64,000 bases of DNA from an uncultured Acidobacteriota bacterium (GCA_963721405.1 CAVRJA010000014.1:909691-973690), one strand, 5' to 3'; positions 29,347-47,648 are shown, counted from the first letter of the stretch. The notes: a model not told the origin generated them from the letters alone. Made by a program: numbers and translations.

Positions 29347-30711
29347 CTATGTTGTGTTGGCCCTCATCACCATCGGCGGGACGGGCTTGAAGCCTTCGTT
29401 CCGGGCGGACAACACATCGATGGCGCACATGAGCCGATCCGGATCGCTCAGGCAGTACTTCGCCTCATCAATACAATCTTTGAATTTTTTCAGAGGTGTC
29501 AGCGTGAAGGTGGTGGAATTCAGCGGCAGCCATGCGCCGCTGGAAACCAGTTTCTCCACGGCCTCGGGATTCGTGACGGCGGCCACAGGACAATTCTGTT
29601 CCACAAGCCAGGCGCCGAAGAACGCGTGCCCGCGGAGCAGAAAAACAAGCGGATTCAATCCCATGCGTTCCACGCAGGCCGCGCACAGCAGCGCCAGGTC
29701 CAGGCAGGTGCCCCGGCGGTGCTTGAGGATCTGTTCCGGGAAAAAGACTTTCTGGGAAAGCGTATTGCTTCCGTCTGGCAGAATTTCCGGCATCTCGAAA
29801 CTCGGCGGCGGATTGATGTAGGTGAGCTGCAGATCCATCTGCAGGGTGAGGAAGAGGGCTTCGAGCATCTGTGTCACCTTCTTGGGATCCCCGGACTGAT
29901 AGCCGTCGAGCGCCGTCTCCCGGTACTCTTTCTTCAGCCGGTCGCGGACGAGCGACACGATCTGCTCCACGGACTCTGAATTGGGTTGAACGAAGCAGGC
30001 CATGATTTCCTGGGCCTCGGGGTGGTAGTACCACTCGTTGTACGCCAGGACCTCCAGGGGATAGGTCTCCGAAATCTGGAGATTCCCCTCGGTGAAGACA
30101 TCGATCCTGAGATTGGCTTTCTCGGCCTCGCGCACTTCCTGCAGACGGGACTTTGTCAGAGGGACGACGATCTTCGTCTGGACGTGGCTCTGTCCGGGCG
30201 GGATGGACGGCAGCGTTTTCTGCCAGGGCTCGCCGTAATCGGTGGCCACCCAGGCTTTGATCAGCACGTCGTTCGCGGCCTCGCTGGAGAGGTTGCGGAT
30301 GGTCAGAGACGGGATGAGCGGCATGCCGCAGTGCGCGAGTGCATAATTGAGGCGGGGCAGCGGCTGAACCTGGAGTTCGAGGTTGTGGGTCGTGACTCGC
30401 CTAAAAGCCGGCGTTGCCTTGAATGTGGTGTCGAGTTTCGGCATTTCGCGGCTCAGGTCGGACAGGGTCGGCAAGCCGGCTCTGAATTGTCTGAGCGCGG
30501 CGCGGCTCTGCTGGAAGGAGCTGTCACGGCCGCTTCGCAGCTTATCGAGCGCGCTGCCGCCTGCGCCGGGAAGTGCGCTCTCCGGAGCTCCCGAAGGCAT
30601 CCCGGAAGTCTGGGGTGGAGCCTGTTTGGGGCGCGGTTCGCCGCAGGAAACACAGAACTTGCCGGCCGGGTCATTCTCGGCGTGGCACTTTGGACAATTC
30701 CAGTTTGGCAT
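29347..30711 (-). CDS. zinc-ribbon protein with C-terminal transglutaminase-like cysteine-protease domain
   Basis: Start at the internal Met giving MPNWNCPKCHAENDPAGKFCVSCGEP. C-terminal TGase-core pattern (RRGTCLDLALLCAACVERMGLNPLVFLLRGHAFFGAWL). Confidence 0.75.
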   Translation of the reverse strand: MPNWNCPKCHAENDPAGKFCVSCGEPRPKQAPPQTSGMPSGAPESALPGAGGSALDKLRSGRDSSFQQSRAALRQFRAGLPTLSDLSREMPKLDTTFKATPAFRRVTTHNLELQVQPLPRLNYALAHCGMPLIPSLTIRNLSSEAANDVLIKAWVATDYGEPWQKTLPSIPPGQSHVQTKIVVPLTKSRLQEVREAEKANLRIDVFTEGNLQISETYPLEVLAYNEWYYHPEAQEIMACFVQPNSESVEQIVSLVRDRLKKEYRETALDGYQSGDPKKVTQMLEALFLTLQMDLQLTYINPPPSFEMPEILPDGSNTLSQKVFFPEQILKHRRGTCLDLALLCAACVERMGLNPLVFLLRGHAFFGAWLVEQNCPVAAVTNPEAVEKLVSSGAWLPLNSTTFTLTPLKKFKDCIDEAKYCLSDPDRLMCAIDVLSARNEGFKPVPPMVMRANTT

Positions 30712-30782
30712 TACGGATCCCCCGTTAGTCTGACATGTGCTCCACCCGGCGACACGGGTGAATGACAAAAAGAACGAACCAC

Positions 30783-30885
30783 GAAGACTCAAAGACCTCA
30801 AAGACGGCCGGTGTGGAGAGCCTTAGAGCAAGGCTGCCCCTGCGGAGGAAGCGACAGCCCCCGCCTTTGAGGTCTTCGAGTCTTT
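30783..30885. promoter_or_regulatory. long imperfect inverted repeat in intergenic or leader region
   Basis: GAAGACTCAAAGACCTCAAAG (30783..30803) pairs with CTTTGAGGTCTTCGAGTCTTTGAGG (30865..30885), with about a 60-nt loop. The flanking GAACCACGAA motif is shared with the 19414 hairpin. Confidence 0.5.
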
Positions 30886-30940
30886 GAGGCTTGGAGGTTC
30901 TCCAATAGTCAACGACTCATGTTGTCGTGCAACACCCTGG

Positions 30941-33061
30941 CTACTCATAAAACTTGTGGCCGCAGTTGTCACAGAACTTGTTTCCCTCCATGGTTTTCAG
31001 ATGGCACTTGGGACAGACGACCACCGAGCCGGCGCCGGTTTGGGACATGCCGGCGGTCTGAATCACGCCTGAGCCCGGGGTGATCACCATGGTTCCGGGC
31101 TGGGCGGAACGAGCGGCAGCCGTGGCCGTGTCGCGCTGGGTGTCCATGCCGCGGTTGTACATCTCCTGCATCATGTGCGCATACTCGCGGCTCATATCCT
31201 TGAGATCGGCGAAGCCCTGGTCCTTTATGGCCAGCATGCGGTCGTAGGCTTTCTGAACCTCCGCCGCGGTGGCGCCCCGGAATTTCTCCTGGAAGGCCTT
31301 AGCGACTTCCGGGCTCTTATCGGCGGCCATGGCAAGAATCTGCTCCTCGGACAGGCCTCGCAGATTTTCGGCGCGCTTCAGGTCGGCCAGCATGGCGGCA
31401 CGGTCCGCGGGGGCCGCCGCGATCAACGCTTCCGCCGACAGGTTCGAGAGCGCCTGGATCCTGGCGAGTTCCTGGGCGTGCCGTTGCGACTCCTCTCTCA
31501 TGGCGATTTCCGACCTGGCCGCCTGCTCGCGCACGGTGCGGTCCGTATCCCAGTCCGCTTCCTCCCTCTTGGTCTGCTTCATCTGCTTCAGGATTTCGAT
31601 GGCTTTCTGGGCTTCGATCGCATCGAGCTCGATCTGAGATAAATGTTCCTTCCTTTCGAGTTCGATCTCCGTTTCCTTTTTCGTCTTTCCGAGCCTGATC
31701 GCCGTTTCCGCTTCGAGCTGCTTCGCGGCCACATCCTGCTGGATCTTCGCCCACTCCGATGCCTGGCGCATCTCCACCTCTTTGCGCTGCGCGGCCAGTT
31801 CATGCTCCAGCTGCGCCATCTCCTCGGCGCGGACGGATCCGGCGACCGTCTGGTTGAGGGAAATCTTGCCCGCCAGCGCGGCACGCGCGAGGTCCGTGTC
31901 CTGCTCGACCTTCAAACGCTGAATCAAATGCGCCCTTGCCAGATCGTGATCCTCCTTCTTTTCGCCGAAATCCTGGGTCAGGACGCGCATTTCCTCGGCG
32001 CGCAGGAGCTTGTCCTTGTCGATGGACTGCAGGAACTTTTCCAGCTCCACCTCGTTGGTCACCTGGTTCATTTCATTGGATGAGACTGCCTTCCGCATGC
32101 GCTCGAACACCCGGGCACGATCCTCGTACACCTCCAGCTGCATGAGCGCCTTGGCCGTCTCCTGGTCCAGCAGCCTGCGATCCAGTCCTGTCTGGGAACC
32201 CTCGCCGGCGAGCTTGGTTTCCAGGTCCTGGGCGTTCAGCCAGTACTCTTCCCTCTTGTCGTTGAGCGCGTCCAGCCGCGGGTGCCGGAAATCGAAAATC
32301 CGGATCTGAATGAACGACAGTCCCTTCCTGTCGAAAGTGGTTGCGAGATGCTGCGCCACTCCCTGCTCCATCTGCTGCTTGACCGCCAGGCTTGTCGACA
32401 GCTCCTGGACCGACCTGCTGCCCACGAACTCCATCAGGCAGTTGCGCAACTCCCCTTCGAGGAAACCATTCAGCTCGTTCAGCGAGTAGTTCTGCCGCCC
32501 CTTCATCATGTTCTCGAAAAACAGGGTGGGATTGTCCATCTGGACGACCAGCCTGCACTCCGCCTCCAGCCTGATGGGATCACGAGTCGTCAGGCCTGCG
32601 AGCGAGAACTGCAGTTCCACGTCGCCCGTATCCACGAGCACGGCCGTCGTGGTCTTGTAATTGAAGATATTCTGGATTCGCTGCAGCACCCCCCCCATGT
32701 CGTATCTGCCGGGGTCGAGGATCCCGGAACAGGCGCCGTTTACGAAAAAGATCGCCCGGGTGCCGGCTTCCACGACGAGGCCCCTCTTGAAGAGCCCCTC
32801 CACATCGTCGACCTCGACCCTTGTGGCGAAGTCTTCAACCCGGCGGGCCCACCGGTTCCCCGTCAGTCTGGGGGCTGCGCTTTCAGAAAGGGGCTTGCCG
32901 CAGTTGCCGCAATACGTCCTGTCTGCAGGGACCGTGGCGCCGCAGCTGCTGCATTTGAGCTCTGATCCGGGCAGGCGCTCGCCACAGTTGCCGCAGTAGC
33001 GCGAGCCCTGCTTGTTTCTGGCATTGCATTTGGGACACTCAACCTGAAATAGGGGAACCAT
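30941..33061 (-). CDS. double-zinc-ribbon + SPFH(band-7)-like + long coiled-coil protein with C-terminal zinc ribbon
   Basis: N-terminus MVPLFQVECPKCNARNKQGSRYCGNCG...CSSCGATVPADRTYCGNCG. SPFH-like segment (AIFFVNGACSGILDPGRYDMGG...TAVLVDTGDVELQF...RLEAECRLVVQMDNP). About 350 aa of heptad-rich coiled coil. C-terminal CPKCHLKTMEGNKFCDNCG. GGAGG RBS. Confidence 0.75.
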   Translation of the reverse strand: MVPLFQVECPKCNARNKQGSRYCGNCGERLPGSELKCSSCGATVPADRTYCGNCGKPLSESAAPRLTGNRWARRVEDFATRVEVDDVEGLFKRGLVVEAGTRAIFFVNGACSGILDPGRYDMGGVLQRIQNIFNYKTTTAVLVDTGDVELQFSLAGLTTRDPIRLEAECRLVVQMDNPTLFFENMMKGRQNYSLNELNGFLEGELRNCLMEFVGSRSVQELSTSLAVKQQMEQGVAQHLATTFDRKGLSFIQIRIFDFRHPRLDALNDKREEYWLNAQDLETKLAGEGSQTGLDRRLLDQETAKALMQLEVYEDRARVFERMRKAVSSNEMNQVTNEVELEKFLQSIDKDKLLRAEEMRVLTQDFGEKKEDHDLARAHLIQRLKVEQDTDLARAALAGKISLNQTVAGSVRAEEMAQLEHELAAQRKEVEMRQASEWAKIQQDVAAKQLEAETAIRLGKTKKETEIELERKEHLSQIELDAIEAQKAIEILKQMKQTKREEADWDTDRTVREQAARSEIAMREESQRHAQELARIQALSNLSAEALIAAAPADRAAMLADLKRAENLRGLSEEQILAMAADKSPEVAKAFQEKFRGATAAEVQKAYDRMLAIKDQGFADLKDMSREYAHMMQEMYNRGMDTQRDTATAAARSAQPGTMVITPGSGVIQTAGMSQTGAGSVVVCPKCHLKTMEGNKFCDNCGHKFYE

Positions 33062-33187
33062 GGCATGCCTCCAAATCGGTCGCCGATAGGGATTTCGCCT
33101 GGATTGCGATGATAACGGCGAAGATTGCTAAGAGAATCTGAACCTCCTCATCAGTGAGGCTTCGTGCCGCACGTTGCGGCGGTTGCA

Positions 33188-34777
33188 TCACGTAGGCACC
33201 TGTTCGCTTCCGGCCGGCCGGGCTATCCGCAACGAGATCCGGCTGGCCGTGCCGCCGGCATATTGGATGGGAATCTCGTGCGGACCCACCTGCAGGCGGA
33301 ACGAATCCTGCAAGGCGATATCCTGCTCGAAACGGCGGTTGTCCGGCGAGCCGCGCATCTCGAAATGGACCGTGGCGGGCGATTCGTGCTGCCACAGGAA
33401 ACCGTGGCGCCGCGTGGTGATCCTGGTCAGGCGGATCTGCCACAGGCTGTCGCCGTCGAAGATCTTCCAGCCCTCCCCGACGCGCAGCGTGTGCGGTCCG
33501 CGGATCCGCGTCAACGGGTCAAACAGAGAGCAGGGAACGTCACCCTCCTTTGAGATCGCCGACAGGAGCTCGTCAGGCCGGACCGATTTGCCGCCATAGG
33601 ATTGCAGGTACGCGCGTATCTGTTCGCGTTCGTGCGCCGAAAATGGGGAATCTGCGGCTTCCACGGCGTTGCGGCGAAAAATCTCGTTCATGCGCTGGGT
33701 GATGTCGACGGGGCCCTGTGTTCCCCCGTTTGCAGGATCCAACGCCTCCAGCAACAGTTCGTGTTTGCGCTTCCACACCCGGAGTTTCTCCTCCAGGACA
33801 TTCAGCTCTGCCTGTACGAGTTCCTGCCGCAGCGCTTTTCCCTTGAGCGTGCGTTCCTGCTCGATGGCGCGCACGGCAGCTTCGTGTTCGGCCTGGTCGC
33901 GTATCTCTTCCAGTTTTCCCGCCAGGACCGCCTGCCGGAGGGCGCCGCGCACCTTGTTGCGCTCCACTTCCCGTCTCGCGGCTTCATTCTCCAGGGCAAG
34001 GTCCCCGTACTCCCGGAAGAGCTGGTCAAGCACGGGGCTGAACAGTCTCAGGCTGGTTACCTGCAACACATCGCATACGGATCCTCTCAAAGCGTCCTGA
34101 AGCCATTGCAGCGCCTGCCCGCTCCATTTGGCCTGTTCGTCCGGATGCTGGTAGGCCTCCTCCGCATTCATGGACGAAACCCACTGCCGGGCGGGAAGGG
34201 ATACTCTTGAGGCGACATTTTCCGCGATCTGTTCCGGCGAGAAGGAGATTTCATTCAGGGTGGAGGCCGTGAGACGCGAGGAATCGATCTTGAAAACCGG
34301 GCGGATTTCCAGCTGCATCGGCTGATGGTCGCGGGCGAAAAGATCTCTCAATTGGAGCACCACAGGAAACTCGGCGTTGCGCCAGACGATGGCGCGCGCG
34401 TTCTCCCCCAGGCCCATGGAGGCGATCATTTTTGCCACATCCCGGCGTCCGTATTGCCCGGGTTCCAGTTCGCGCTGGATAACTCCGGCATCCAGCACCA
34501 CGGCGCGCCATCCCCAGTCGACGGTAAATCCAGGCTGAGACTTGTCCAGTTTGAATGTGCGGATCACATCGCCTTCGGGCAACGAGGGGCGAAACGGTTC
34601 TCCCGGCGCCTCGACCATCCCCGCGGTCCGTTTGATGAGGTGGACGAGTTTTCTCCAAAAGCCGAGTATCAGGCTCATCGCAATCGTAGTTGCGATTGCG
34701 AGCGGGAGATTCTGCTTGAGCTTGAGCCAGAGATCCTGGAGCTGATCCAGCCACCACGAGTCCATAGTGAACTCCAT
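33188..34777 (-). CDS. membrane-anchored SPFH-like / coiled-coil protein
   Basis: N-terminal TM (LPLAIATTIAMSLILGFW). SPFH-like region (GFTVDWGWRAVVLDAGVIQRELEPGQYG...EFPVVLQLRDLF...LEIRPVF). Long Ala/Glu/Arg-rich coiled coil. Globular C-terminal domain. Confidence 0.6.
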   Translation of the reverse strand: MEFTMDSWWLDQLQDLWLKLKQNLPLAIATTIAMSLILGFWRKLVHLIKRTAGMVEAPGEPFRPSLPEGDVIRTFKLDKSQPGFTVDWGWRAVVLDAGVIQRELEPGQYGRRDVAKMIASMGLGENARAIVWRNAEFPVVLQLRDLFARDHQPMQLEIRPVFKIDSSRLTASTLNEISFSPEQIAENVASRVSLPARQWVSSMNAEEAYQHPDEQAKWSGQALQWLQDALRGSVCDVLQVTSLRLFSPVLDQLFREYGDLALENEAARREVERNKVRGALRQAVLAGKLEEIRDQAEHEAAVRAIEQERTLKGKALRQELVQAELNVLEEKLRVWKRKHELLLEALDPANGGTQGPVDITQRMNEIFRRNAVEAADSPFSAHEREQIRAYLQSYGGKSVRPDELLSAISKEGDVPCSLFDPLTRIRGPHTLRVGEGWKIFDGDSLWQIRLTRITTRRHGFLWQHESPATVHFEMRGSPDNRRFEQDIALQDSFRLQVGPHEIPIQYAGGTASRISLRIARPAGSEQVPT

Positions 34778-34808
34778 GAAAAGGTGATCCGTGCCCGCTA
34801 TCGGAGCG

Positions 34809-36026
34809 TCAGTTGCTGTCTGCGAACTCCCGGAACCGCAGCACCAGCTTTTTCAGCTTTTCGGTGTCGATCCGGACGCGCCGGAAAGCCTCGTCGAAAT
34901 CCTTTTTCTGCAACGGACGGATTCTGAGCCTGTAGCTTTCGATCGCCTCCCGGCCCGCATCGACGCAGTGCGGAATCTGCCCGTTCAGCTCCTCGACCAT
35001 CACGTTTACAGCCTGGTTCGCCAGCCGCTCCAGATCCCGTCCGCTGAACCACTCCGTGTTGCGCACTACTTCCTGAAGCGGGTAGTCCAGCGCATGCCCC
35101 TCCTTCAGCAACTGGATCTCCAGAATCGCCTTGCGTGCTTCGGCGTCCGGCAGCGGGATATAGACGCGCTTCTGAAAGCGGCTGAGAATCGCGTCATCCA
35201 GATCCCAGGGCGCGTTGGTGGCGGCGATCGTGAGCACGAACCGGTCCTCGCCCTTGTCCGCCAGCCCGTCGAGTTCCGAGAGAATGGTGGAGAGCATCCT
35301 CCGCTCCGCCCCGCTCTCCGAGCCCTCTCCGCGCGCCAGGCACAGCGACTCGACTTCATCCACAAAAATGACCGCGAATCCCTCGTCGGCTTCGCTGCGC
35401 GCGGCGTTGAAGAGTGCCGTGACCAGCTTGGACGACTCGCCGAAGTATTTGGAGAGCAGGTTGCTGGCCTTTACGTTGAAGAAGGTCGCACCCAGGCCGT
35501 TGCTCGTAGCCGCCGCGAGCAGGGTCTTGCCCGTTCCCGGGGGGCCGTAGAAGAGCATTCTGCGCCAGCCCGAGAGCTTCACGTTTTCGGGCTTCTGCGC
35601 AAGCGCCAGGCCGTAAGTGAACTTGATCTCCCGCTTGGTGGCCTCGAGGCCCCCGATCTTATCCCACGTCACCTTGCTGCGATGAATCAGCGACGCGATT
35701 TCGTTCGTGTACTGCTGCTCGTCATCCTCTGGAGCGCGCTCCCGCACCTTGTCGCCCGGCCCCTGTGATGGCGGCGCAGACGGGAGCACTCTTCGCTTGC
35801 CGGCTTTCAACGCTTCTGCAATCTCGAGATACTGGCGGGACTTCTGCCTTCGACGCATCTGATCCTCACGCGTCAGCGCGTAGTCGGCATAGCTTCTCAT
35901 CAGCTTGGCCGCCTTCGTATAGGTTGCGGAGGCTTCGGCGCCCTTGTTCTGCGATTCCAGCGCCCGGGCCTCGGCCAGAGTTTTATCGAGAGACACCTTG
36001 AGGGGACCGCTCAGGTCGACATCCAT
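34809..36026 (-). CDS. MIT-domain AAA+ ATPase, Vps4/katanin-like (meiotic clade)
   Basis: N-terminal three-helix MIT-like region (LDKTLAEARALESQNKGAEASATYTKAAKLMRSYADYALT...RQYLEIAEALKA). Walker A GPPGTGKT. Walker B FVDEVES. Vps4-like ATNAPWDLDDAILSRFQKRVYIPLPD. Confidence 0.85.
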   Translation of the reverse strand: MDVDLSGPLKVSLDKTLAEARALESQNKGAEASATYTKAAKLMRSYADYALTREDQMRRRQKSRQYLEIAEALKAGKRRVLPSAPPSQGPGDKVRERAPEDDEQQYTNEIASLIHRSKVTWDKIGGLEATKREIKFTYGLALAQKPENVKLSGWRRMLFYGPPGTGKTLLAAATSNGLGATFFNVKASNLLSKYFGESSKLVTALFNAARSEADEGFAVIFVDEVESLCLARGEGSESGAERRMLSTILSELDGLADKGEDRFVLTIAATNAPWDLDDAILSRFQKRVYIPLPDAEARKAILEIQLLKEGHALDYPLQEVVRNTEWFSGRDLERLANQAVNVMVEELNGQIPHCVDAGREAIESYRLRIRPLQKKDFDEAFRRVRIDTEKLKKLVLRFREFADSN

Positions 36027-36050
36027 GACTTGATTCTCCAGACTGTGGGA

Positions 36051-36680
36051 TTAGTCGTCATCGCTGATCTTTTCGGCTTTGATGGCTTTGTCGATCTCCT
36101 CGTGGAATCGGGACAGGTCCTCATCGTCGGTTCCGGTCTCCTCCGCCTTCGCCATGTCTCCGATGGCTTTGTCGAAGTCGGCAAAGCCTACGTCCTCTTT
36201 TACTTTTCCCTGAGTGACTCCCAGTTCCTCCTCACCCAGAATCTCCTCCAGCATGTCGTTGAAGGTGTCGTCGTCGACCTCGGCGGAGTCGATGGCCTTC
36301 TGGATGGAGCTGTCTTTGAAGCGCACGATCAGGTTTTGAAGGCTCTTGCGATCCTTCTTTTTCTCCAGCATCTCCATTTTTCGCAGGAAGGAAGTGAGTG
36401 CCGTCTTGGCCAGGGAGAGGCGCCGCAGGTCGCTGTTGACGTATCCGTTGTCGATTTCCACCTGCCTCATCTCCCGGAAAATATCCCGCAACACCTCCTG
36501 TTTGCCCCCCTTCTTGGCGACGACCGCCTCCTTTACCTTCTGCTGCTTGCGCTGCTCCATGACATCGAGGTCGCGCCGCTTCTTTTTCTGATCGCGCTCG
36601 ATCTCCTTGAGCTGAACACGGATATCCGCCGCATTGGGCGACTTGCTGAACAATTTGTCTAGCAGATTCATGACTCTCAC
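36051..36680 (-). CDS. Snf7/ESCRT-III-like coiled-coil protein with acidic C-terminal (MIM-like) tail
   Basis: 209 aa. Basic N-terminal helices (KEIERDQKKKRRDLDVMEQRKQQKVKEAVVAKKGGK). Central region similar to Snf7 alpha4-5 (IQKAIDSAEVDDDTFNDMLEEILGEEELG). Acidic end DDEDLSRFHEEIDKAIKAEKISDDD. 24 nt downstream of the MIT-AAA ATPase gene. Confidence 0.7.
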   Translation of the reverse strand: MRVMNLLDKLFSKSPNAADIRVQLKEIERDQKKKRRDLDVMEQRKQQKVKEAVVAKKGGKQEVLRDIFREMRQVEIDNGYVNSDLRRLSLAKTALTSFLRKMEMLEKKKDRKSLQNLIVRFKDSSIQKAIDSAEVDDDTFNDMLEEILGEEELGVTQGKVKEDVGFADFDKAIGDMAKAEETGTDDEDLSRFHEEIDKAIKAEKISDDD

Positions 36681-36707
36681 TCCTTTGTCAACGGAGATGG
36701 ATCCGGT

Positions 36708-37322
36708 TTAATTCTCCAGGCTCTTCCGGTTTTTCAACGGCTCCTCCCCGGCCTTTATGCCGGGCTCTTCTTTCCTGCCCACGATGCGCTTCTTGATCTC
36801 TTCCAGTCTGCGGCGTTCGGCGGACTCGTCCACGGCGGTGCTCATGTTCGATCCACTCTCTGCCGCCAGGCTTACCCTCTTGTACTCTTCGACGTGGCCT
36901 TCCACCTCATCTACCATGCGGTCGATCTGGTCTTCCCCGACGCCGCGGGATCGCATGGCCTCCATTTCCTGGATCTTGGCGATGAGGTTCAGGTGCAGGT
37001 TTACGTTTTCGTTGTAGATCAACACCTGTTTCCCGAGGTTGGCGCGCTGCTTTTCCAGCCGCTCGATCCGCCGCAGGATGATGGTCTCTTCCGTCGGCGT
37101 GAGTTCGCCCCGCCGGATCGAGTTTTCTTCCGCGGTGACGGCCTTTTCGAGGCCGATCAGTTGCTCCTCGTTTTCGCGCAGCTCGATCTCGTTCTGCGCG
37201 CGAAGCGTTTCCAATCCCTTGATGAGATCTCTCGGGCTCGCCGCATCCTGGTAGAGCCGGCGCGTTTCGTCCGGCAGATCCGTTCGCTGGAACAGGCTTC
37301 TCAGTTTTTCCATCACAGACAT
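36708..37322 (-). CDS. Snf7/ESCRT-III-like coiled-coil protein (paralog 2)
   Basis: 204 aa, all-helical, heptad-rich. MSVMEKLRSLFQ N-terminus resembles CHMP N-termini. Region ...IDRMVDEVEGHVEEYKRV... resembles the ESCRT-III alpha5 pattern. Acidic or basic mixed C-terminus. Confidence 0.55.
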   Translation of the reverse strand: MSVMEKLRSLFQRTDLPDETRRLYQDAASPRDLIKGLETLRAQNEIELRENEEQLIGLEKAVTAEENSIRRGELTPTEETIILRRIERLEKQRANLGKQVLIYNENVNLHLNLIAKIQEMEAMRSRGVGEDQIDRMVDEVEGHVEEYKRVSLAAESGSNMSTAVDESAERRRLEEIKKRIVGRKEEPGIKAGEEPLKNRKSLEN

Positions 37323-37330
37323 GATTCCTC

Positions 37331-40048
37331 CTACCGGATAGATCTTTGGATGTAAGTCTTCCCTTTGTGATCGAGAATCTGAAAGCGTCCGCCGGCGACT
37401 TGAACGGCGGCCGCTGCCGACTGGCGATCCAGATTGTGCTCGGCCAGGAAGGAAGCCATCGTCACCGATTCCCCCGGCAATGCCAGCCTGGGGTGATCCG
37501 ACAGCGCCTTTTCGGCGCGGACCCTCTTCTCCCCGCAGGTCTCCGGATCGAACAGGTCACGGAGGGGGCTTTCGTGGCCAAACACGATCCAGGATGTACC
37601 TTCGCCTTTTTCGACCAGGTAGAACAGCGCGTTGCCGCGCGCCTCGGCGTGCCTCTTCCAGTCTTCCGGCCACCCCGTGGGGGAGAAGATCCCGACGCAA
37701 TAGAAGTCCTGGTCCGTGAAAGCCAGGCCGCCGGGGCCCATGATTTCCTGCAGGATGCTATCCGCACCCTGGAGGCCTGCCCCGCCTGGTGCGAGAGCCT
37801 CGAGGTCCCGCCTGACGGCAGCCAGGATGAAGCGGTTCTTCTTTAACAGTCCGGCAGCCAGGGCAAACTGGGTCACGCCGCCGAATGATCTGCGGAAGGA
37901 CTGGCCCTGCGATTTCGGGTCTATTTCGAATTCTTCCCCGCTCCATGGGTGTATCACGCGTCCCGCGTCTCGCACCTTGAGATCAAACCGATTGATGAAG
38001 GTGTCGCCCCAGCAGGGAACCGGCGCCATCGGAGGGGGCTGGGACCGGAGATCGTGCGTCGTCATGCGGGGGAATCCCTCCGCCGTGAGGCCCGGCCTCG
38101 TGGAAGCAGCCGCCTGCGACGGAAGAAAGACCGGGTCCCTCGCTGCCGCGGCGCCCGAAGCCCTGGGCGCCGGCGCCGGGGACATTTCGGGCGTGGAGGC
38201 GTTCTCTTTGTGTCTCTCGCATGAGCGGTGGCCGAGTTGCCAGCAGATCCGGCATATCGGGGCGCCGCATTCGCGGCATTCCCAGACCGGCGAAAACACG
38301 CCGACTTTTGTCAGGTAGCGCTTTCCGCATCGATAACAGACATCGGGCTCGAAGCCCACGGGCGCCGCGGGCGCGGCCCGGGCCGGAACAACTTCCGGCT
38401 CGTCCACCGCAGGCACGGATCTCACCTCCGCGGGCGCCGGAGCGGCGGCTCGCGACGAGTGGATGTGCGCCGGGGCGCGGCGCTGCGCTTCCCGGCCGGC
38501 TTCCGTCATGTTCACCAGTCCATGTCCCACCTGCATGTCACTGGCATACTCCTGGCCGTCGGGGCCTTTCAGGGGACGGCATGCGAAATAAAAAAGGTCG
38601 ACCAGGTCGGCGGGAGTCGGTTCCCAGCCGAGTGAGCGCAGGATTGATTTGAGCAGCACCAGGCAGCCAGCGATCGCCGGCGTTGCCATGCTGGTGCCCG
38701 AGAGGCGCACGTGGCTCTTGTCCACCACTTCGGATGCGTCATAGCCGGCTGTGGAGGATCTGGCGGCGACCACATCCACGCCGGGTCCCACACAGTTGGG
38801 CTTGCCGAATAACGGTGATTCGGGATTTGCGCTCCCCTGAGCGGAAAACGCTGCCAGGAGTCTATTCTTGTCTATGGCGCCCACCGTCACGGCGGTAGGG
38901 CAGTCCGCGGGGACGCAGATCGACTCCGGGTAGGACGGCATCGGGTTGCCGGCGGCCACGCACACCACGGTCCCCTTGCGGAAGGCTTCGGCGCAGGCCT
39001 TTGACCAGATCGATTGTCCGTTCGGCGTCGTATCCATCTCTCCCAGCGAGAGGCTCAGGATGTCGGCCTTCTTCTCTACAACGGCCCACGCCATGCCCCG
39101 GAGAATCGATTCGAGATTGCCGGCCCTACCGGGGGATAAAACCTTGCCGGCGATCAGGCGGCAGCGCGGCGCGATTCCCGAATACCTGCCCCCGAGGGTC
39201 GTGTCGTCGCCGGCTGCGATGGAGGCAACGTGGGTCCCATGCCCGTCGACGTCTTCCTCCCCGCTGAGGGTGAAATCTTGATAGTCCTCGTGGGATATCC
39301 TGGAGAGTGCCGGGTGGCTGCGGTCGACGCCGGTGTCGAGCACGGCGAGTGTGACGTCCTGGCCGAATTGCGCCATGATGTCGGGAGTGACTCCGAGGAT
39401 CTCCCGGCTTTCCACCATCATGGTGGTGACCGCCATTGGAGCGGGCGCCGTTACGGGGGTCAGCGGATCGGCGACGATCCCCGCCTCGGGCAGGCCGGCA
39501 ATCTCGCGCACGAAACTCATCTCCGGCGGGCAGGTGAGCTTTACGATGCCGAACTGCTCCAGGAGCTCTGCCGGCAGAAGGGCGAACCCCTGGGAGACCA
39601 GGCGGCTCTTGAGCTTCTCCATCGCGCCCGGATCCTGCGACATGCACAGGACCGCGGGCCACTTTTCAGCGGGCACCAGGTCGGAATAGCAGCGCATCGA
39701 TCCGCCGGGATCGTTGCGGACATTTTCCGGGGCGGCGATGTCACGGAGGTCGGAATCCAGGTGCTCCTGCAACCTCGAGGCCAGGGCCATTTCACCGACG
39801 CCCTGTCCGCGAAGCCCGGAGACCACGGTCGAATAACGTTCGTAAGCGTCGCCCCGGATTACCCTGCGGTTGATGACACGGTCGACGCGCAGCCGTTCCT
39901 TCTCGTCGTATTCACGCTCCTCGATGCGTTCGTCGATCACCTCGAAACGCAGGGCGGCCTCGGCTTGCTGAGCAATGACCTGGCGCCGCCTCGCTTCCAG
40001 CGACTGCACCAGGAACGAATGAATCTTCGCATCGACTGCATTGTTCAC
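37331..40048 (-). CDS. subtilisin-like serine protease (peptidase S8) with embedded zinc ribbon and large C-terminal domain
   Basis: Catalytic triad blocks VAVLDTGVD (Asp), DGHGTHVASIAAG (His), SGTSMATPAIAG (Ser). Insert CYRCGKRYLTKVGVFSPVWECRECGAPICRICWQLGHRSCERH. Stop overlaps the upstream gene (40045..40048). Confidence 0.85.
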   Translation of the reverse strand: MNNAVDAKIHSFLVQSLEARRRQVIAQQAEAALRFEVIDERIEEREYDEKERLRVDRVINRRVIRGDAYERYSTVVSGLRGQGVGEMALASRLQEHLDSDLRDIAAPENVRNDPGGSMRCYSDLVPAEKWPAVLCMSQDPGAMEKLKSRLVSQGFALLPAELLEQFGIVKLTCPPEMSFVREIAGLPEAGIVADPLTPVTAPAPMAVTTMMVESREILGVTPDIMAQFGQDVTLAVLDTGVDRSHPALSRISHEDYQDFTLSGEEDVDGHGTHVASIAAGDDTTLGGRYSGIAPRCRLIAGKVLSPGRAGNLESILRGMAWAVVEKKADILSLSLGEMDTTPNGQSIWSKACAEAFRKGTVVCVAAGNPMPSYPESICVPADCPTAVTVGAIDKNRLLAAFSAQGSANPESPLFGKPNCVGPGVDVVAARSSTAGYDASEVVDKSHVRLSGTSMATPAIAGCLVLLKSILRSLGWEPTPADLVDLFYFACRPLKGPDGQEYASDMQVGHGLVNMTEAGREAQRRAPAHIHSSRAAAPAPAEVRSVPAVDEPEVVPARAAPAAPVGFEPDVCYRCGKRYLTKVGVFSPVWECRECGAPICRICWQLGHRSCERHKENASTPEMSPAPAPRASGAAAARDPVFLPSQAAASTRPGLTAEGFPRMTTHDLRSQPPPMAPVPCWGDTFINRFDLKVRDAGRVIHPWSGEEFEIDPKSQGQSFRRSFGGVTQFALAAGLLKKNRFILAAVRRDLEALAPGGAGLQGADSILQEIMGPGGLAFTDQDFYCVGIFSPTGWPEDWKRHAEARGNALFYLVEKGEGTSWIVFGHESPLRDLFDPETCGEKRVRAEKALSDHPRLALPGESVTMASFLAEHNLDRQSAAAAVQVAGGRFQILDHKGKTYIQRSIR

Positions 40049-40755
40049 GGCATTTTGCTCCCGTGCCTCAGAGGCACAACCTTCCCTTCCTCCTGATAAC
40101 TCTCCACCAGATCCAGAGCGACGATCCGGCGCAGCATTTCAAAGGAAACCAGGGCGACCACGCCGGACACCATGGGCAGCATGCGGACGCTCTCATAGGA
40201 CTGCCCGCACTTCGTGCACTTCAAAGCCCGGTCCTGCTGCGGCGAAGGCAAGGCCGACCCGCAGGAACGGCACGGAATCCCGGAAGCTTGCGGCCGGCCC
40301 TCGACCGTTGCCAGGGGGAATCCGTCACGGGCCGCGATTTCCGCCAGCCTGGCGAAAAACGCCTCGCGATTGGAAATCGAAAGGTAGAAGAGCAGGGCAG
40401 GGTGGCGAAGGAGCGTTGCAAGATCCTTCCGAAGCGTTTCCATGGGCAGCTCACCGCGGATGGCGCCGTGGGGAACGGCTGCCCGGCTCAATCCCCGGAC
40501 CATCGTCGTCACAGGGTCCGCAGGCCTGGCGCTGCCCGCTTCGGCCGATGGCGCCCGGAAGGACTCCGCGGCCTCGGAGTAGGATATCATCCGCTTCCCG
40601 CCGGGCGCATGGATGGCGGGCAGGGCCATGAGCCTCCTGAATTCGGCGCTGAAGCGGGCGGCCGAGCCCAGGTGGACGCGCGGATTGCCGAATTCGCGCA
40701 GGAACCCTCCCATGCGTGTGGCCACGGCGTCGAGGTGTCGGTCCAGTGTTTCCAT
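40045..40755 (-). CDS. hypothetical protein with C-terminal zinc ribbon (CRSCG...CTKCG)
   Basis: 236 aa. Translationally coupled between the second MIT-AAA ATPase and the S8 protease. No family recognised. Confidence 0.5.
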   Translation of the reverse strand: METLDRHLDAVATRMGGFLREFGNPRVHLGSAARFSAEFRRLMALPAIHAPGGKRMISYSEAAESFRAPSAEAGSARPADPVTTMVRGLSRAAVPHGAIRGELPMETLRKDLATLLRHPALLFYLSISNREAFFARLAEIAARDGFPLATVEGRPQASGIPCRSCGSALPSPQQDRALKCTKCGQSYESVRMLPMVSGVVALVSFEMLRRIVALDLVESYQEEGKVVPLRHGSKMP

Positions 40756-40761
40756 CAGGCC

Positions 40762-41907
40762 TCAGCTCCCTTCGGCGAATTTCCGGTAGCGCTCCAGCAT
40801 GGACTCGCTGACCGACGGCGGCACCTCCCGAATGGCAGTTTCCAGATCCTCGAGCGTCAGAATCGTCTCGGCGCCGGATCCGATCTGCCGGCGGAACGGA
40901 AGATCGGTCGCCTTGGTGCAGACGCCCGCGATGTCGGCGCCGCTGTACCCGGCCAGTTTCTCCGCCAGGACACGGTAATCGACGGACGGTTCCATGGGGA
41001 TGCCGTCGAGATTGAACTGAAGTATCTGCTCCCGGGCGGCGGCATCCGGAAGGCCGACATAGAACTTCTCTCCGAAGCGCCCGGTGCGCATCGCAGCCTC
41101 ATCCATGTCCCACGGCCGGTTAGTGGCGCCCATGAGCAGAATGCAGTTCGTCTTGGGATCGAGGCCGTCCACCTGCGAGAGGAACTCGGGGACGACGCGG
41201 TTCATCACCGTCGACTGCCCGCCCCGCTTGCCGACCAGGGCTTCCGTTTCGTCAAGGAATATCACTGATATGGGGTAACGGCGGGCGACCTCAAACAGGC
41301 GCGCGAGGTTCTGTTCGGCCACACCTACCCACTGCGACATGATGTTGGAGCTCTTCACGTTCAGGAACTGGGCATCCAACTCGGTGGCGATGGCTTTGGC
41401 GATCATCGTCTTCCCCGTGCCCGGCGGGCCGTAGAGCAGAATCCCTCCCCCGGCTTTCTTCTTGAAGCGGGTTGCGGCTTCGGGATGACGGAACGGGTAG
41501 ATGACCCTGAGGTTGATGGCTTCCTTGACCTCGTTCAGCCCGGCGATCTGGTCGAAGCGAACATCGGGTTTTTCGGAAACGATCCATTTGTTTTCCGGGG
41601 TGAGGTCGGCATCCGGGTCTTTGCCTGAGCCGGCCCGTTCGGGAGAGGCCGCCGGCGCCGTCCCGGGAGGGGATTTCCTGCCTTTGAGCGACATGGCGAG
41701 ATCGCACAGATGGCGGGCCTTCTGCTGCCGGATCTTTTTCAGCTCATTTTCCGATTCCAGGGCGGCCTTGAGCAGGTATCTGGCGGCCATCAACAAGTGA
41801 TACCGGGCCTGCGGGTGATCTCCGATCTTAAGGTAATCAAGGCCCTGATCCCTGTTCTTTCCGTATTGATCCAACAGGAACTGCATAGAGATTCCTCGTG
41901 CCGTCAA
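40762..41907 (-). CDS. MIT-domain AAA+ ATPase, Vps4-like (paralog 2)
   Basis: MIT-like N-terminus (LDYLKIGDHPQARYHLLMAARYLLKAALESENELKKIRQQKARHLCDLAMSLK). Walker A GPPGTGKT. Walker B FLDETEA. ATNRPWDMDEAAMRTGRFGEKFYVGLPD. Confidence 0.85.
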   Translation of the reverse strand: MTARGISMQFLLDQYGKNRDQGLDYLKIGDHPQARYHLLMAARYLLKAALESENELKKIRQQKARHLCDLAMSLKGRKSPPGTAPAASPERAGSGKDPDADLTPENKWIVSEKPDVRFDQIAGLNEVKEAINLRVIYPFRHPEAATRFKKKAGGGILLYGPPGTGKTMIAKAIATELDAQFLNVKSSNIMSQWVGVAEQNLARLFEVARRYPISVIFLDETEALVGKRGGQSTVMNRVVPEFLSQVDGLDPKTNCILLMGATNRPWDMDEAAMRTGRFGEKFYVGLPDAAAREQILQFNLDGIPMEPSVDYRVLAEKLAGYSGADIAGVCTKATDLPFRRQIGSGAETILTLEDLETAIREVPPSVSESMLERYRKFAEGS

Positions 41908-41933
41908 CCGGAAACGTCGGCGCCGTTGCCACT

Positions 41934-42536
41934 TTACTTGCCGCTCTTTTCAATCTCCTTCTGGATCGCCGAAAGATCCTTGTCGATCTCTTCGTCGATG
42001 CCTGATCGTTCCTCGTGAGCGACCTCTTCCTCAAGCATCTTGTCGATGTCGGCGTCGCTCACCAGCTGGCCCTCGGAACTGCCTTCGTAGTCGAACATCG
42101 ATTCGGATGTCATCTCCAGGAATGTGTCTACCCGCTCTTCGAGGTTCTCCGCCTGAGACATCGCCTTCTCGAAGTTGACCTGCGTCTTGGCCATGTCCGT
42201 CGCGCCAAAGACCTCGGAAATTGACTTCGAGAGCGAGTTCATCGCGTTGGCGAACTCAAAGTGGCCCTCCGCCTGTTCTTTGATCTGCACGGCGGACTCG
42301 AGGGCAAGCATCTGCCGCTCGAGCCGGACCTTGATCGTCGCCGTCTTCTTGATTGCCTTCTTGAGGAACTCGTATTGATTGTTCCAGCCGAGCTTTTTGG
42401 CCCGTTTTGCCTTCTCGATGTAGTCGGATTCGTGCTTGGTATTGGCAGCGATCTGGCGTTTGATCTGAGTGACGGCCTTCCGGATCTGAATGTTCCGTTC
42501 GATGCGCCGTTCCTCCTTGGACTTGAAGAGACTCAT
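41934..42536 (-). CDS. Snf7/ESCRT-III-like coiled-coil protein (paralog 3, CHMP1/Did2-like layout)
   Basis: MSLFKSKEERRIERNIQIRKAV... has a basic N-terminus. MAKTQVNFEKAMSQAENLEERVDTF resembles CHMP1 alpha4-5. Acidic C-terminus with DIDKMLEEE...IDEEIDKDLSAIQKEIEK (MIM1-like). Confidence 0.7.
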   Translation of the reverse strand: MSLFKSKEERRIERNIQIRKAVTQIKRQIAANTKHESDYIEKAKRAKKLGWNNQYEFLKKAIKKTATIKVRLERQMLALESAVQIKEQAEGHFEFANAMNSLSKSISEVFGATDMAKTQVNFEKAMSQAENLEERVDTFLEMTSESMFDYEGSSEGQLVSDADIDKMLEEEVAHEERSGIDEEIDKDLSAIQKEIEKSGK

Positions 42537-42556
42537 GGGACCTTCCTTTCCCCCTC

Positions 42557-43435
42557 CTAATGACTCATCCTTTCCACGATACTTGCAATGCGATAGTTGT
42601 AGTAACCGCTTCCCGCCAGGGCGAGGATCAGGATGCCGGCGGTCCAGATCGTCGGGATCCAGAAGCCGGTCAACAGAAGAGCCAACAGCATGTCCACGAT
42701 AGTGTAGCCGAGAAGGGTTGCCAGGTTCAGGATGTTCGACTCCTCGGAGATCAGCCGGCGGATCAGCGGGATCGTCAGCAGAGGCAGCAGCAGCGCAAAA
42801 ACGATCCAGACGAAAATCCTGCGTCCTTTGGAGCTGTCCGCGATGCGTGCGCGCCAGTAGGAACTCAGGATCAGGCTGCCGCCCATTTCTTCCGCAAACG
42901 TCTGGGCGAAGATCGCCTGGCCGGTCGCGCGCTCCGCGACGCGCAGTTCCAGCTTGAGCGTGCCTGTTCTCTCCTTCACATCGTATTCAGGAATCTCGCC
43001 AAACAGGACCAGGTCGACGCCGATCCGGCGTGCGGCAGCGACTGCGTCTTCAAGCCGGGTGACGGAGATGCCCTGGCCGCCGAACTCGCGCAACAGCTTT
43101 CCCAGAAACGGCTCCTCCAGGACCCGGAACTCGCCGGAAGCGGCGATCTTTTCCCGCAGCAGCTTGGTGACATTGCCCTGCCGGTCACCGGCGAGCTCGA
43201 GGACTGCGAGGCTGGGGACCCCTTCCTTTTTCGGCAAGTCTCCTGCGACCTTTGCACACAGCCTCTCGGCGAGATTCCGTTGCATGAATCCCCGGCCATC
43301 TTCTGCCGGGGCAATCAGGTGATATCCCTGGTAGAACATGGAAAGGCCCAACCCGAAGTAGAGAATGGGCTTGACCAATGACCTGCCCAGGAATGAATAC
43401 AACGGGTCCATGATTCGCAGCTGCACCATGGTCAC
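42557..43435 (-). CDS. polytopic membrane protein, first gene of the minus-strand array
   Basis: N-terminal TM pair, a soluble middle domain and three or four C-terminal TM helices. An AT-richer 250-bp region upstream (43436..43690) probably carries a promoter. Confidence 0.55.
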   Translation of the reverse strand: MTMVQLRIMDPLYSFLGRSLVKPILYFGLGLSMFYQGYHLIAPAEDGRGFMQRNLAERLCAKVAGDLPKKEGVPSLAVLELAGDRQGNVTKLLREKIAASGEFRVLEEPFLGKLLREFGGQGISVTRLEDAVAAARRIGVDLVLFGEIPEYDVKERTGTLKLELRVAERATGQAIFAQTFAEEMGGSLILSSYWRARIADSSKGRRIFVWIVFALLLPLLTIPLIRRLISEESNILNLATLLGYTIVDMLLALLLTGFWIPTIWTAGILILALAGSGYYNYRIASIVERMSH

Positions 43436-46858: not shown

Positions 46859-47563
46859 TCACTGCCACTCCAACCCCGTGGCAGCGCCCAGGATCGAGAT
46901 CAGCCGGTCCGCGCCCGGCACTTGATGCGTGAAGTCGATTCTGGTATTTCGGGAATAGACGGAATAAATTGTGCCCAGTTGTCCGATCGTCCCCACGGAG
47001 CGCGCTCCCGGCAAGAAGACGTGATGCTCGCGGGCGATCAGGGCCACAACATCTTCCCACTTCATACTCACCGTACGAAAGTATGACCGGGCCGTGATGC
47101 CCTGGGGATCCACCCTCACGTACATGCTCCACTGCCGCAGCGGGCACCAGAAGCAGAGGGCCGCCGCGAGATAGAAGGGCAGGCCGATCGAGCCCCGTCC
47201 GGCCGAAAAAGCACGGGCGACGAGGGTGCCGGACACGAGCAACGAGAGTCCCAGTATGGCGCACAGGCTGATAATCAGGATGCGGCCCTTGGAGTGATTT
47301 GTGATCGGGAAGGTTTCCGCGGGTATCTTGCAGGGGGGAACCGGCCGGGATGAGCCAGCCAACCGGGCCTCGCGGCGACGCCTCGCCGCCACGGGATGAG
47401 TGCCGACATAGCCGGCAGCCAGGAAATATCCCAAAACCAGGCAGATCAGAAACGCGAAAAAGTTAAGCGCGCTGAATTGCCCTTTCGGCGGAGCCAGGAG
47501 CAGGAGCAGAAATGCGCTGACCAGCAGCACTGCGCCCGCGATTCGCGACAGGTAGTCTCTCAT
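46859..47563 (-). CDS. membrane protein with bacterial PH-like C-terminal domain
   Basis: Start trimmed to MRDYLSRIAGAVLLVSAFLLLLL. Three or four TM helices. C-terminal ...ITARSYFRTVSMKWEDVVALIAREHHVF resembles bPH_2 / YdbT-like PH domains. Confidence 0.55.
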   Translation of the reverse strand: MRDYLSRIAGAVLLVSAFLLLLLAPPKGQFSALNFFAFLICLVLGYFLAAGYVGTHPVAARRRREARLAGSSRPVPPCKIPAETFPITNHSKGRILIISLCAILGLSLLVSGTLVARAFSAGRGSIGLPFYLAAALCFWCPLRQWSMYVRVDPQGITARSYFRTVSMKWEDVVALIAREHHVFLPGARSVGTIGQLGTIYSVYSRNTRIDFTHQVPGADRLISILGAATGLEWQ

Positions 47564-47648
47564 GGCTGATCTTGCCGCCCCCACGAAGGAACGGTCACGA
47601 TGCGTCCGGCGACCGATGATTGATCCGGCTGGTTCCCCGCTGAAAGGT

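Follow-up and report, generated by a model that had tools for sequence, protein, structure and literature searches.

A conserved bacterial gene cluster pairing a Snf7-family protein with MIT-bearing Vps4-like ATPases, a candidate ESCRT-III-type membrane-remodelling system

Introduction

[quoted passage not shown] In the words of a 2025 review, a Vps4-like ATPase "appears absent in bacteria" and further components of the pathway may "await discovery in bacteria"; the same review describes how bacteria generally employ proteins of the ESCRT-III superfamily in repair (PMC7619361). As the closest precedent, a comparative genomics study published in 2024 reported the transfer of Vps4-like ATPases to several bacterial phyla, Planctomycetes included, in whose operons snf7 is replaced by the gene of a TPR-6TM protein; it also presented PspA or a membrane-anchored divergent Snf7 located beside a double-AAA ATPase with an inactive N-terminal copy, and suggested ATP-dependent membrane remodelling (PMC11237479). 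In archaea, Euryarchaeota and Asgard among them, Makarova et al. described ESCRT loci with winged-helix proteins and Ser/Thr kinases, and a "Meth_adaptin" group with a protein composed of SPFH, coiled-coil and zinc-ribbon parts, and cited YdjI as a known SPFH partner of bacterial PspA (PMC10936438). Here we analyse a gene cluster in which a Snf7-type gene adjoins genes of MIT-bearing Vps4-like ATPases. It lies within a stretch of 64,000 nucleotides from an uncultured soil bacterium of the Acidobacteriota (GCA_963721405.1, CAVRJA010000014.1:909691-973690), called the window in the following, with positions counted from its first letter.

In the initial annotation of the window, seven consecutive minus-strand genes between 34809 and 42536 had been proposed to encode two Vps4-like AAA ATPases, three Snf7-like proteins, an S8 protease and a zinc-ribbon protein, and to form a possibly undescribed system. 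All seven open reading frames (ORFs) were recovered at these coordinates by an ORF scan, and the view of the system as undescribed agrees with our finding no account of the module formed by the Snf7-type protein and the MIT-AAA ATPases in the searchable full-text literature, subscription-only papers being outside that scope. The three helical proteins of about 200 residues are referred to below as S1, S2 and S3, the ATPases as ATPase1 and ATPase2, the S8 protein's C-terminal domain as X, and the membrane protein at the head of the cluster as TM292 (Table 1). As judged from sequence comparisons, a Snf7-type ESCRT-III gene is paired here with genes of MIT-bearing Vps4-like AAA ATPases, in an arrangement that is conserved across phyla and undescribed. 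We consider it probable, with a likelihood of roughly two in three, that the cluster represents an ATP-driven ESCRT-III/Vps4-type membrane-remodelling machine of bacteria.

Comparison with described systems

In regard to the archaeal ESCRT (Cdv) system, in which CdvB-type ESCRT-III is joined by CdvC/Vps4, several features are shared. CdvC is the best curated hidden Markov model (HMM) for both ATPases of the window, the archaeal protein with SPFH, coiled-coil and zinc-ribbon parts has the same domain types as a 706-aa protein encoded in the cluster, and winged-helix proteins and Ser/Thr kinases are present in the archaeal loci as well as here. On the other hand, the host is a bacterium, its two ATPases are old paralogues whose scores fall far short of the equivalog cut-off of CdvC, the sequences of two of the three helical proteins do not identify them as Snf7, and CdvA, ESCRT-I/II, adaptin-like and ubiquitin components were not seen here.

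Likenesses also extend to the eukaryotic ESCRT-III/Vps4 pair. Among solved structures, yeast Snf7 is the best relative of S3 and the MIT domain of VPS4A/B that of the ATPase1 N-terminus, and the general layout, in which a hydrophobic N-terminal motif and a basic hairpin precede an acidic tail that ends in a helix, is common to eukaryotic ESCRT-III and this module, with the CHMP N-termini and the consensus of the MIT-interacting motif (MIM) as points of comparison. In contrast to the eukaryotic system, there is no evident Vta1-binding beta-domain, there are no upstream ESCRT-0/I/II components, and ATPase1 has Ser in place of one arginine of the second region of homology (SRH).

Among bacterial systems, PspA and Vipp1 are comparable in that they belong to the ESCRT-III superfamily, act at the inner membrane and are linked to an SPFH protein (YdjI). 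However, PspA and Vipp1 have no MIT-AAA partner, a point made in the initial annotation that agrees with the 2025 review (PMC7619361), and neither S1, S2 and S3 nor their families match PspA_IM30, for which reason membership of the three proteins in PspA was rejected. The operons of the 2024 study resemble the present locus in having Vps4-like ATPases in bacteria, including Planctomycetes, and in the occurrence of some bacterial Snf7-clade proteins beside AAA+ ATPases, yet their descriptions set them apart from the arrangement found here, where soluble Snf7-type and ESCRT-III-like proteins adjoin single-cassette MIT-AAA ATPases (PMC11237479).

The co-occurrence of an AAA ATPase and an S8 protease in one operon, together with weak HMM matches to both components, recalls the IetAS (IteA/IteS) anti-phage system. 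The two ATPases score 104.7 and 114.2 bits with IteA, against a cut-off of 510, and the protease scores 19.7 bits with IteS, against 900, while the S8 domain is missing from most orthologous loci. As the scores lie far below the cut-offs and the pairing with S8 is not obligatory, membership in IetAS was rejected; that system is not known to have a Snf7-type partner. A PADLOC search of the ten proteins encoded between 30941 and 43435 returned only generic similarity to IetA, TRIP13 and subtilases, and no other known defence genes.

The Snf7-family protein and the MIT-bearing ATPases

Evidence for the ESCRT-III component comes primarily from S3. The Pfam Snf7 model (PF03357) was matched by 24 of 30 diverse S3 orthologues, with a best E = 1.8e-8, and several of the 149 homologues found already carry a precomputed PF03357 annotation. 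When the family profile was compared with the PDB, the core of yeast SNF7 was retrieved first (E = 5.6e-4), with CHMP2A next; PspA and Vipp1 were absent from these matches, and no match to PspA_IM30 at E <= 1 was obtained for S3 or its 30 orthologues. At the level of the family, such profile matches indicate that S3 belongs to Snf7 and not to PspA. The proposal of three Snf7-like proteins is thereby supported for S3 but not for S1 and S2, which have no Snf7 match by Pfam, PDB profile or hhalign.

The N-terminus of S3 reads MSLFKSKEE in the window copy, the conserved motif being MG(L/I)FKSKEE, and the protein ends in a conserved amphipathic helix, D..I...L..I...L. These features presumably resemble the CHMP N-termini and the MIM1 consensus, a likeness that is taken as a lead only. 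The charge of S3 changes from +10 in the first 60 residues, through +1 in the middle, to -17 in the last 80 residues, or from +11 to -17 in sum. Of the basic N-terminus and acidic tail that had been ascribed to all three helical proteins, the asymmetry holds for S3 and for S1 (+7, +6 and then -20, which is +13 against -20), but not for S2 (-3, 0, -3).

Both ATPases contain a single PF00004 (AAA) domain (E = 3.7e-35 for ATPase1 and E = 9.6e-36 for ATPase2) and carry GPPGTGKT and ATN(A/R)PWD(L/M)D, as reported in the initial annotation, together with a Walker B DE. Among 52 orthologues of ATPase1 and 43 of ATPase2, GPPGTGKT, the Walker B DE and the ATN.PW..D segment are invariant or nearly so, and the same is true of the pore loops, SKYFGESSK in ATPase1 and SKWVGEAE in ATPase2. 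The longer segment ATNrPWDLD..LSRF.K...IPLPD is invariant in the orthologues of ATPase1.

For the N-termini, the relationship to MIT domains emerged at the profile level, as the initial annotation had anticipated for both proteins. The phmmer alignment of ATPase1 with human VPS4B begins at residue 31, within the MIT region, and a profile built from 29 orthologues of ATPase1, covering their first 85 residues, had the MIT domains of VPS4B and VPS4A as its top five PDB matches, which span the full domain (E = 3.9e-4 to 5.6e-3). The best PDB match of the ATPase2 N-terminal profile was 2mpk (E = 3e-3), an MIT domain from the chitin synthase of an oomycete, and hhalign shows the N-termini of the two ATPases to be homologous (96.5%, E = 7e-10).

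At the other end of the proteins, Vps4_C (PF09336) was found in ATPase2 slightly above its cut-off (22.1 versus 21.3 bits) and in 22 of 40 ATPase2 orthologues, with a best E = 2.2e-8. ATPase1 gave no Vps4_C match in the Pfam scan, but the alignment of its C-terminal region with spastin, katanin and p97 D2 continues to the end of the last helix. Among NCBIfam models, archaeal CdvC was the top one for both ATPases (178.1 bits for ATPase1 and 214.4 bits for ATPase2), with FtsH clearly below it. The two ATPases score lower against each other (126 bits) than against eukaryotic Vps4 (164 and 190 bits), and are therefore old paralogues, not products of a recent duplication. Taken by their motifs and profile matches, ATPase1 and ATPase2 are Vps4-like, single-cassette classical AAA proteins with MIT-like N-termini and intact catalytic motifs.

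Conservation of the gene set across phyla

The distribution of the module was followed through S3 in a scan comprising one genome per species, approximately 185,000 species genomes in total. Relatives of S3 are present in 178 of them, for the most part Planctomycetota, while none was found on the viral contigs of IMG/VR. The best 80 loci of S3 relatives, to which all counts out of 80 refer, belong to Acidobacteriota, to many Planctomycetota (Brocadiia and Ca. Kuenenia stuttgartiensis among them), to one Sumerlaeota and to a few unclassified genomes, and those nearest to the locus in the window are from metagenome-assembled genomes of Acidobacteriota/Terriglobia.

Neighbours encoded on the same strand were counted at the 44 well-flanked loci, where S3 is flanked by 6 kb or more on either side. 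One or more MIT-AAA homologues accompany S3 at 43 of these 44 loci, and both ATPases do so at 15. S2 and S1 are found at 33 and 29, respectively, SPFH proteins at 23, and X and kinases at 18 loci each. Located directly upstream of S1, S2 is among the most constant neighbours of the module (63 ORFs by HMM). Profile HMMs detect more copies of S1 and S2 than tblastn, and some loci hold a duplicated S1.

The usual order of genes is X-S2-S1-ATPase1-S3-ATPase2, which can be followed by an SPFH protein, a membrane protein and a kinase, and the succession from X to ATPase2 recurs in Planctomycetota (Ca. Kuenenia included), Acidobacteriota and Sumerlaeota. The survey of gene neighbourhoods in related genomes that had been suggested with the initial annotation reveals that the gene set of the window recurs in dozens of genomes of several phyla and is not a product of chance.

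A departure from this pattern is seen in one planctomycete clade (loci L057-L080, L082 and L083), in which ATPase2 is absent from the vicinity of S3 and the terminal helix of S3 is shortened. A shortened S3 tail where ATPase2 is missing nearby would fit a pairing of the tail with ATPase2, but represents a single evolutionary event. In the same clade, the gap between ATPase1 and S3 holds a small Kdo/WaaP-type kinase or a zinc-ribbon membrane protein; at two loci (L082:10938-11762 and L083:10953-11762), the gene between ATPase1 and S3 corresponds to the PF06293 Kdo/WaaP-type kinase.

The divergent helical proteins

An AlphaFold2 model of S1, based on 45 sequences, has an overall predicted local distance difference test (pLDDT) score of 79.6, reaching about 90 over residues 14-145. 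It is composed of a short alpha0, a hairpin of helices 41 and 47 residues long and three short helices, which a disordered linker joins to two C-terminal helices of acidic character; this predicted order of helices is ESCRT-III-like. About 19 of the top 50 Foldseek matches of this model, none of them with a significant E-value, belong to the ESCRT-III superfamily, PspA and Vipp1 included. Conserved C-terminal amphipathic helices are seen in S1 as in S3, and when the S3 HMM was run against 4038 locus ORFs, S1 and S2 were over-represented among its weak, insignificant matches, supplying 15 of the top 25. We regard S1 as a probable divergent ESCRT-III protein.

S2 is characterised by an N-terminal M..M/L.KL..LF motif and a conserved EL..LE.EI.G. 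Its similarity to S1 is weak and was observed by BLASTP (E = 6e-4), in a full-length alignment to an S1 homologue (E = 1e-6 in a tiny database) and in another locus (E = 0.002). One gene call, P0134, was considered as a natural fusion of X and S2 and was rejected as a frameshifted gene call.

Structural variants of S1 also occur. In some homologues, the acidic tail is replaced by a long C-terminal extension, consisting of DnaJ-like CxxCxGxG Cys-rich repeats (P0137, P0142) or of a long coiled coil (P0129). One planctomycete locus (L081:5891-7710) contains two tandem S1 paralogues of 210 and 201 aa that are 43-45% identical, with a predicted lipoprotein gene between S2 and the tandem pair and a small membrane protein between S3 and ATPase2.

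Proposed function and alternative explanations

In the mechanism that we propose, S3 and S1, and perhaps S2, would attach to the cytoplasmic membrane on its inner face by means of the N-terminal hydrophobic motif and the basic hairpin, and would co-polymerise there into filaments. The conserved amphipathic helices in the acidic tails could act in a MIM-like manner and recruit the MIT domains of the ATPases, and gene adjacency suggests that S1 pairs with ATPase1 and S3 with ATPase2. Hexamers of the ATPases would thread the subunits through their K(Y/W)(F/V)G pore loops, extracting them and remodelling the polymer, with constriction, scission or recycling as the outcome. SPFH scaffold proteins, together with TM292, may position the assembly on the membrane, and protein kinases may regulate it. 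The X protein, with its alpha/beta domain and winged helix, might be an adaptor or a regulator, which in the window is fused to a cytoplasmic subtilase. Concerning the cellular role, our first guess is membrane repair or envelope-stress maintenance, and our second the formation of vesicles or endomembranes; the machinery could also be involved with internal membranes or with a division step.

Several observations weigh against this interpretation. The S3 of the window reaches only 11.3 bits with the Snf7 model (E = 0.27, cut-off 27.3), so that the copy taken alone stays below threshold. Pfam scans of 26 members of the S1 family and 30 members of the S2 family gave no match to Snf7 and none to PspA_IM30 at E <= 1, PDB profile searches with both families yielded only noise, with no ESCRT-III, PspA or Vipp1, and hhalign probabilities against the S3 family were 6% for S1 and 0.8% for S2, with S1 and S2 likewise showing no significant similarity to each other. 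The matches of the S1 fold to ESCRT-III are no better than those to prefoldin, bMERB or designed hairpins, and S2 is devoid of the charge asymmetry of ESCRT-III proteins. In regard to the ATPases, single sequences never reach the Pfam cut-off for MIT, the best E values being 0.002-0.005, reached by 4-5 members, and 0.47 for the window. The scores with CdvC lie far under its 650-bit equivalog cut-off, and those with the NCBIfam models of CDC48 (154 bits for ATPase1, 208 for ATPase2) and PAN (159 and 184) are close to them. The C-terminal third of ATPase1 is as near to spastin, katanin and p97 D2 as to Vps4; in its last 115 residues, the best single-domain match is spastin with 59.7 bits, with katanin and p97 D2 at 46-49. 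In the SRH, the 52 orthologues of ATPase1 have an invariant LSRF where ATPase2 has RPGRF, one conserved arginine being replaced by Ser, which, as a sequence difference, could mean an altered ATPase activity or the need for a partner subunit. Lastly, the patchy distribution and the variability of the accessory genes (protease, kinases, zinc ribbons) would fit a system of stress or conflict as well.

A stress or conflict system of this kind, directed against phages or responding to toxins, is an unlikely explanation in our view, although it accounts for part of the data. The kinases, SPFH proteins and sometimes a protease would sense damage, the ESCRT-III-like proteins would be effectors that repair membranes or disrupt them in the manner of abortive infection, and the AAA ATPases would restrain or activate these effectors. 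Presence in as few as 178 of about 185,000 species genomes would suit such a system, as would the exchange of accessories from locus to locus (S8 protease, zinc ribbons, MerR fusions, STK and Kdo kinases, an FGE-sulfatase domain) and the weak PADLOC and NCBIfam matches to IetA/IetS, a defence pair of AAA and S8 proteins. These matches are, however, generic (105-114 and 20 bits versus 510 and 900), the S8 domain is missing from most loci, no other defence gene was detected among the ten proteins of 30941-43435, and no relatives are found on viral contigs. Moreover, the GC content of the cluster is like that of its flanks, and the order of the core genes is stable across a phylum-level set of Planctomycetota. 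Because membrane repair is common to both, this explanation partly overlaps with that of a membrane-remodelling machine.

An overlap of the same kind exists with an envelope-stress system of the PspA/Vipp1 type, in which the helical proteins would coat and stabilise the membrane with SPFH partners and the ATPases would only regulate assembly, with no scission taking place. The SPFH partner YdjI of bacterial PspA (PMC10936438), the PspA and Vipp1 structures among the Foldseek matches of S1, and the general service of bacterial ESCRT-III superfamily proteins in repair (PMC7619361) are in line with it, but S1, S2, S3 and their orthologues do not match PspA_IM30, while S3 matches Snf7, and the ATPases that accompany them are of the classical AAA type, bearing features of MIT and Vps4_C, and are not regulators of the PspF type; we regard such a coat as very unlikely. 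We attach even less probability to a proteostasis module, in which the ATPases would unfold the substrates of a partner protease (in the window, the S8 fusion), the proteins of about 200 aa would be coiled-coil adaptors or substrates, and their similarity to Snf7 would reflect coiled-coil composition rather than function. The AAA cores indeed resemble Cdc48 D2, PAN and AFG2 about as closely as they do Vps4, the S8 protease lies in the middle of the operon in the window, and S1 and S2 have no specific family matches. Still, it is the protease domain that is missing from most loci, while the Snf7-family gene is always there beside an ATPase; its matches to Snf7 extend to E = 1.8e-8, with yeast Snf7 as the best PDB match ahead of other coiled coils, and MIT-like N-termini and Vps4_C typify ATPases directed at ESCRT-III.

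The ATP-driven ESCRT-III/Vps4-type machine, which we prefer, could also be understood in a more far-reaching form, as a complete and self-standing bacterial ESCRT machinery. It would consist of a heteropolymer of Snf7-type and divergent ESCRT-III proteins, joined by two Vps4-like ATPases, an adaptor with a winged helix and scaffolds of SPFH proteins. It would perform true membrane scission of reverse topology, and its ATPase and ESCRT-III genes would be no recent imports from archaea. Scission could in that case serve, for example, the biogenesis of vesicles or endomembranes, or a division step independent of FtsZ in Planctomycetota. We consider this extended form unlikely. If it were true, the partnership of ESCRT-III and Vps4 would date to an ancient event between the domains or to a time before the split of bacteria and archaea.

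In the current literature, this partnership is regarded as an archaeal and eukaryotic invention, and a conserved bacterial operon with Snf7 and a MIT-bearing Vps4-like ATPase would change that picture. The module would offer new and possibly simpler systems for ATP-driven remodelling of ESCRT-III, and would make the origin of Vps4 testable, with horizontal transfer and deep ancestry as the opposing possibilities. Planctomycetota possess elaborate internal membranes, and some of their lineages divide without FtsZ; the module would provide candidate machinery for the membrane dynamics of this phylum. It also adds new parts without characterised relatives, namely the X domain and the S1 and S2 families.

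The X domain, the S8 protease and the zinc-ribbon gene

The assignment of an S8 protease in the initial annotation was confirmed by Peptidase_S8 (Pfam, E = 1.7e-41) and by the D/H/S motifs visible in the sequence, and the zinc-ribbon protein does contain the expected ribbon, with weak Pfam support. The S8 domain extends over residues ~229-475 of the 905-aa fusion and is followed by a Pro/Ala-rich linker, a small Cys-rich finger (residues ~569-614) and the C-terminal X domain, and no signal peptide was seen in the sequence of the fusion. Across loci, only the last ~225 aa, corresponding to X, are conserved, and the S8 domain is absent from most of them. A homologue of the 236-aa zinc-ribbon protein was found at 5 of the 80 loci, all of them from Acidobacteriota that also have the S8 fusion. 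From this distribution, the S8 protease and zinc-ribbon genes are taken to be acidobacterial, lineage-specific accessories located outside the core.

X itself is a stand-alone gene of ~240 aa in some Acidobacteriota (L001, L004, L006), and in Planctomycetota it forms the C-terminus of proteins of 270-720 aa, some of which have a helix-turn-helix (HTH) of the MerR type. The X model, which is of high confidence (pLDDT 92, predicted template modelling score, pTM, 0.87), begins with a helix, continues with a mixed alpha/beta domain and ends in a winged helix. The family is tiny, with 50 representative clusters among 1.84 billion proteins, and a PDB profile search and Pfam scans of its members gave only noise. 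Identity with the ESCRT-II proteins Vps22, Vps25 and Vps36 was considered and rejected, as only generic winged-helix matches were obtained; in contrast to the tandem winged helices of ESCRT-II, X carries a single winged helix, attached to an alpha/beta domain that is novel. The MerR-type HTH is fused N-terminally to X at L059:313-1929, L052:5536-6966 and L016:2252-3895, with E down to 1e-7, and such fusions point to a possible role of X proteins in DNA binding or in the regulation of transcription.

Organization of the cluster and its other members

The coordinates of the cluster are given in Table 1. The run of genes oriented in the same direction is longer than initially annotated, extending from 24836 to 43435 on the minus strand with 13 genes. 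The tight spacing reported for the seven ORFs proved correct, with intervals, from ATPase1 to S3, of 24, 27, 8, -4 (an overlap), 6 and 26 nt. Start sites were refined for two genes using the N-termini of orthologues, in both cases in agreement with the recorded gene product: the most likely start of S1 is the ATG at 36671, as opposed to the ORF end at 36680, and that of ATPase2 the ATG at 41886, whereas the ORF itself reaches a TTG at 41907. S2, S1 and ATPase1 (34809-37322, minus strand) share one reading frame, with spacers of 27 and 24 nt after the stop codons. Scanning the cluster for promoters and terminators gave nothing above chance; a single promoter-like site was noted at 43929-43900.

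Table 1. Features of the gene cluster, listed from its first to its last gene (all coordinates refer to the window)
Feature	Coordinates	Strand	Description
TM292	42557..43435	-	first gene of the cluster; 292-aa integral membrane protein
S3	41934..42536	-	200-aa Snf7-family (ESCRT-III) protein
ATPase2	40762..41886	-	374 aa; MIT-like N-terminal domain, one classical AAA cassette, Vps4_C helix
Zinc-ribbon protein	40045..40755	-	236 aa; CxxC...CxxC ribbon, weak Pfam support
S8 fusion	37331..40048	-	905-aa cytoplasmic protein with S8 subtilase domain and X domain
X domain	37334..38038	-	last 235 aa of the S8 fusion; conserved gene upstream of S2
S2	36708..37322	-	204-aa helical protein
S1	36051..36671	-	206 aa; ESCRT-III-like predicted architecture
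ATPase1	34809..36026	-	405 aa; MIT-like N-terminal domain, one classical AAA cassette, meiotic-clade-like motifs
SPFH protein 1	33188..34777	-	529 aa; weak SPFH/Band 7, then coiled coil; 31 nt downstream of ATPase1
SPFH protein 2	30941..33061	-	706 aa; double zinc ribbon, SPFH/Band 7, long coiled coil, C-terminal zinc ribbon
Zinc-ribbon protein	29347..30801	-	~450-484 aa; N-terminal zinc ribbon
Ser/Thr protein kinase with TPR region	27487..29274	-	Pkinase E = 7.1e-54
Ser/Thr protein kinase with TPR repeats and C-terminal FGE-sulfatase-like domain	24836..27400	-	last gene of the run; Pkinase E = 3.2e-54, FGE-sulfatase E = 6.5e-50

As read from its sequence, TM292 contains a soluble domain that is preceded by one hydrophobic helix and followed by about three more. 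The protein gave only weak CsgG/LpoB-like matches, and its homologue adjoins the module at 19 of the 80 loci, in both Acidobacteriota and Planctomycetota. Downstream of ATPase1, the first SPFH protein passes the Band_7 cut-off narrowly (23.9 versus 23.6 bits) and is kept in this position at three acidobacterial loci (L001, L004 and L006), while the second, conserved in acidobacterial loci, matches DZR (2e-13), Zn_Ribbon_1 (7.5e-14) and Band_7 (3.5e-12). At the same three loci, the SPFH genes are followed by the counterpart of the zinc-ribbon protein at 29347..30801, which has a weak DZR match. A segment of the latter protein in its 484-aa version, RGTCLDLALLCAACVERMGLNPLVFLLRGHAFFGAW, has by eye the appearance of a transglutaminase-like Cys-His core, with no Pfam match at E <= 0.01.

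In Planctomycetota, a conserved protein of 630-700 aa is encoded between ATPase2 and the membrane protein at about 31 loci (for example L017:11726-13627, L016:7000-9009 and L056:8962-11061). Its N-terminus is SPFH-like (Band_7 24.3 bits in L056), a coiled coil is also present, and the C-terminus is rich in repeats and resembles a beta-propeller; the protein stands in place of the 706-aa type. The kinases that recur beside the module at the well-flanked loci are of the STK or Kdo/WaaP type, and homologues of the kinase/FGE protein are found at several loci. Upstream of the cluster, a 596-aa ORF without Pfam match (47649-49439, minus strand) overlaps an ORF at 46859-48022, also on the minus strand, which would encode a membrane protein containing a PH domain of the bacterial type (bPH_6, E = 5e-6).

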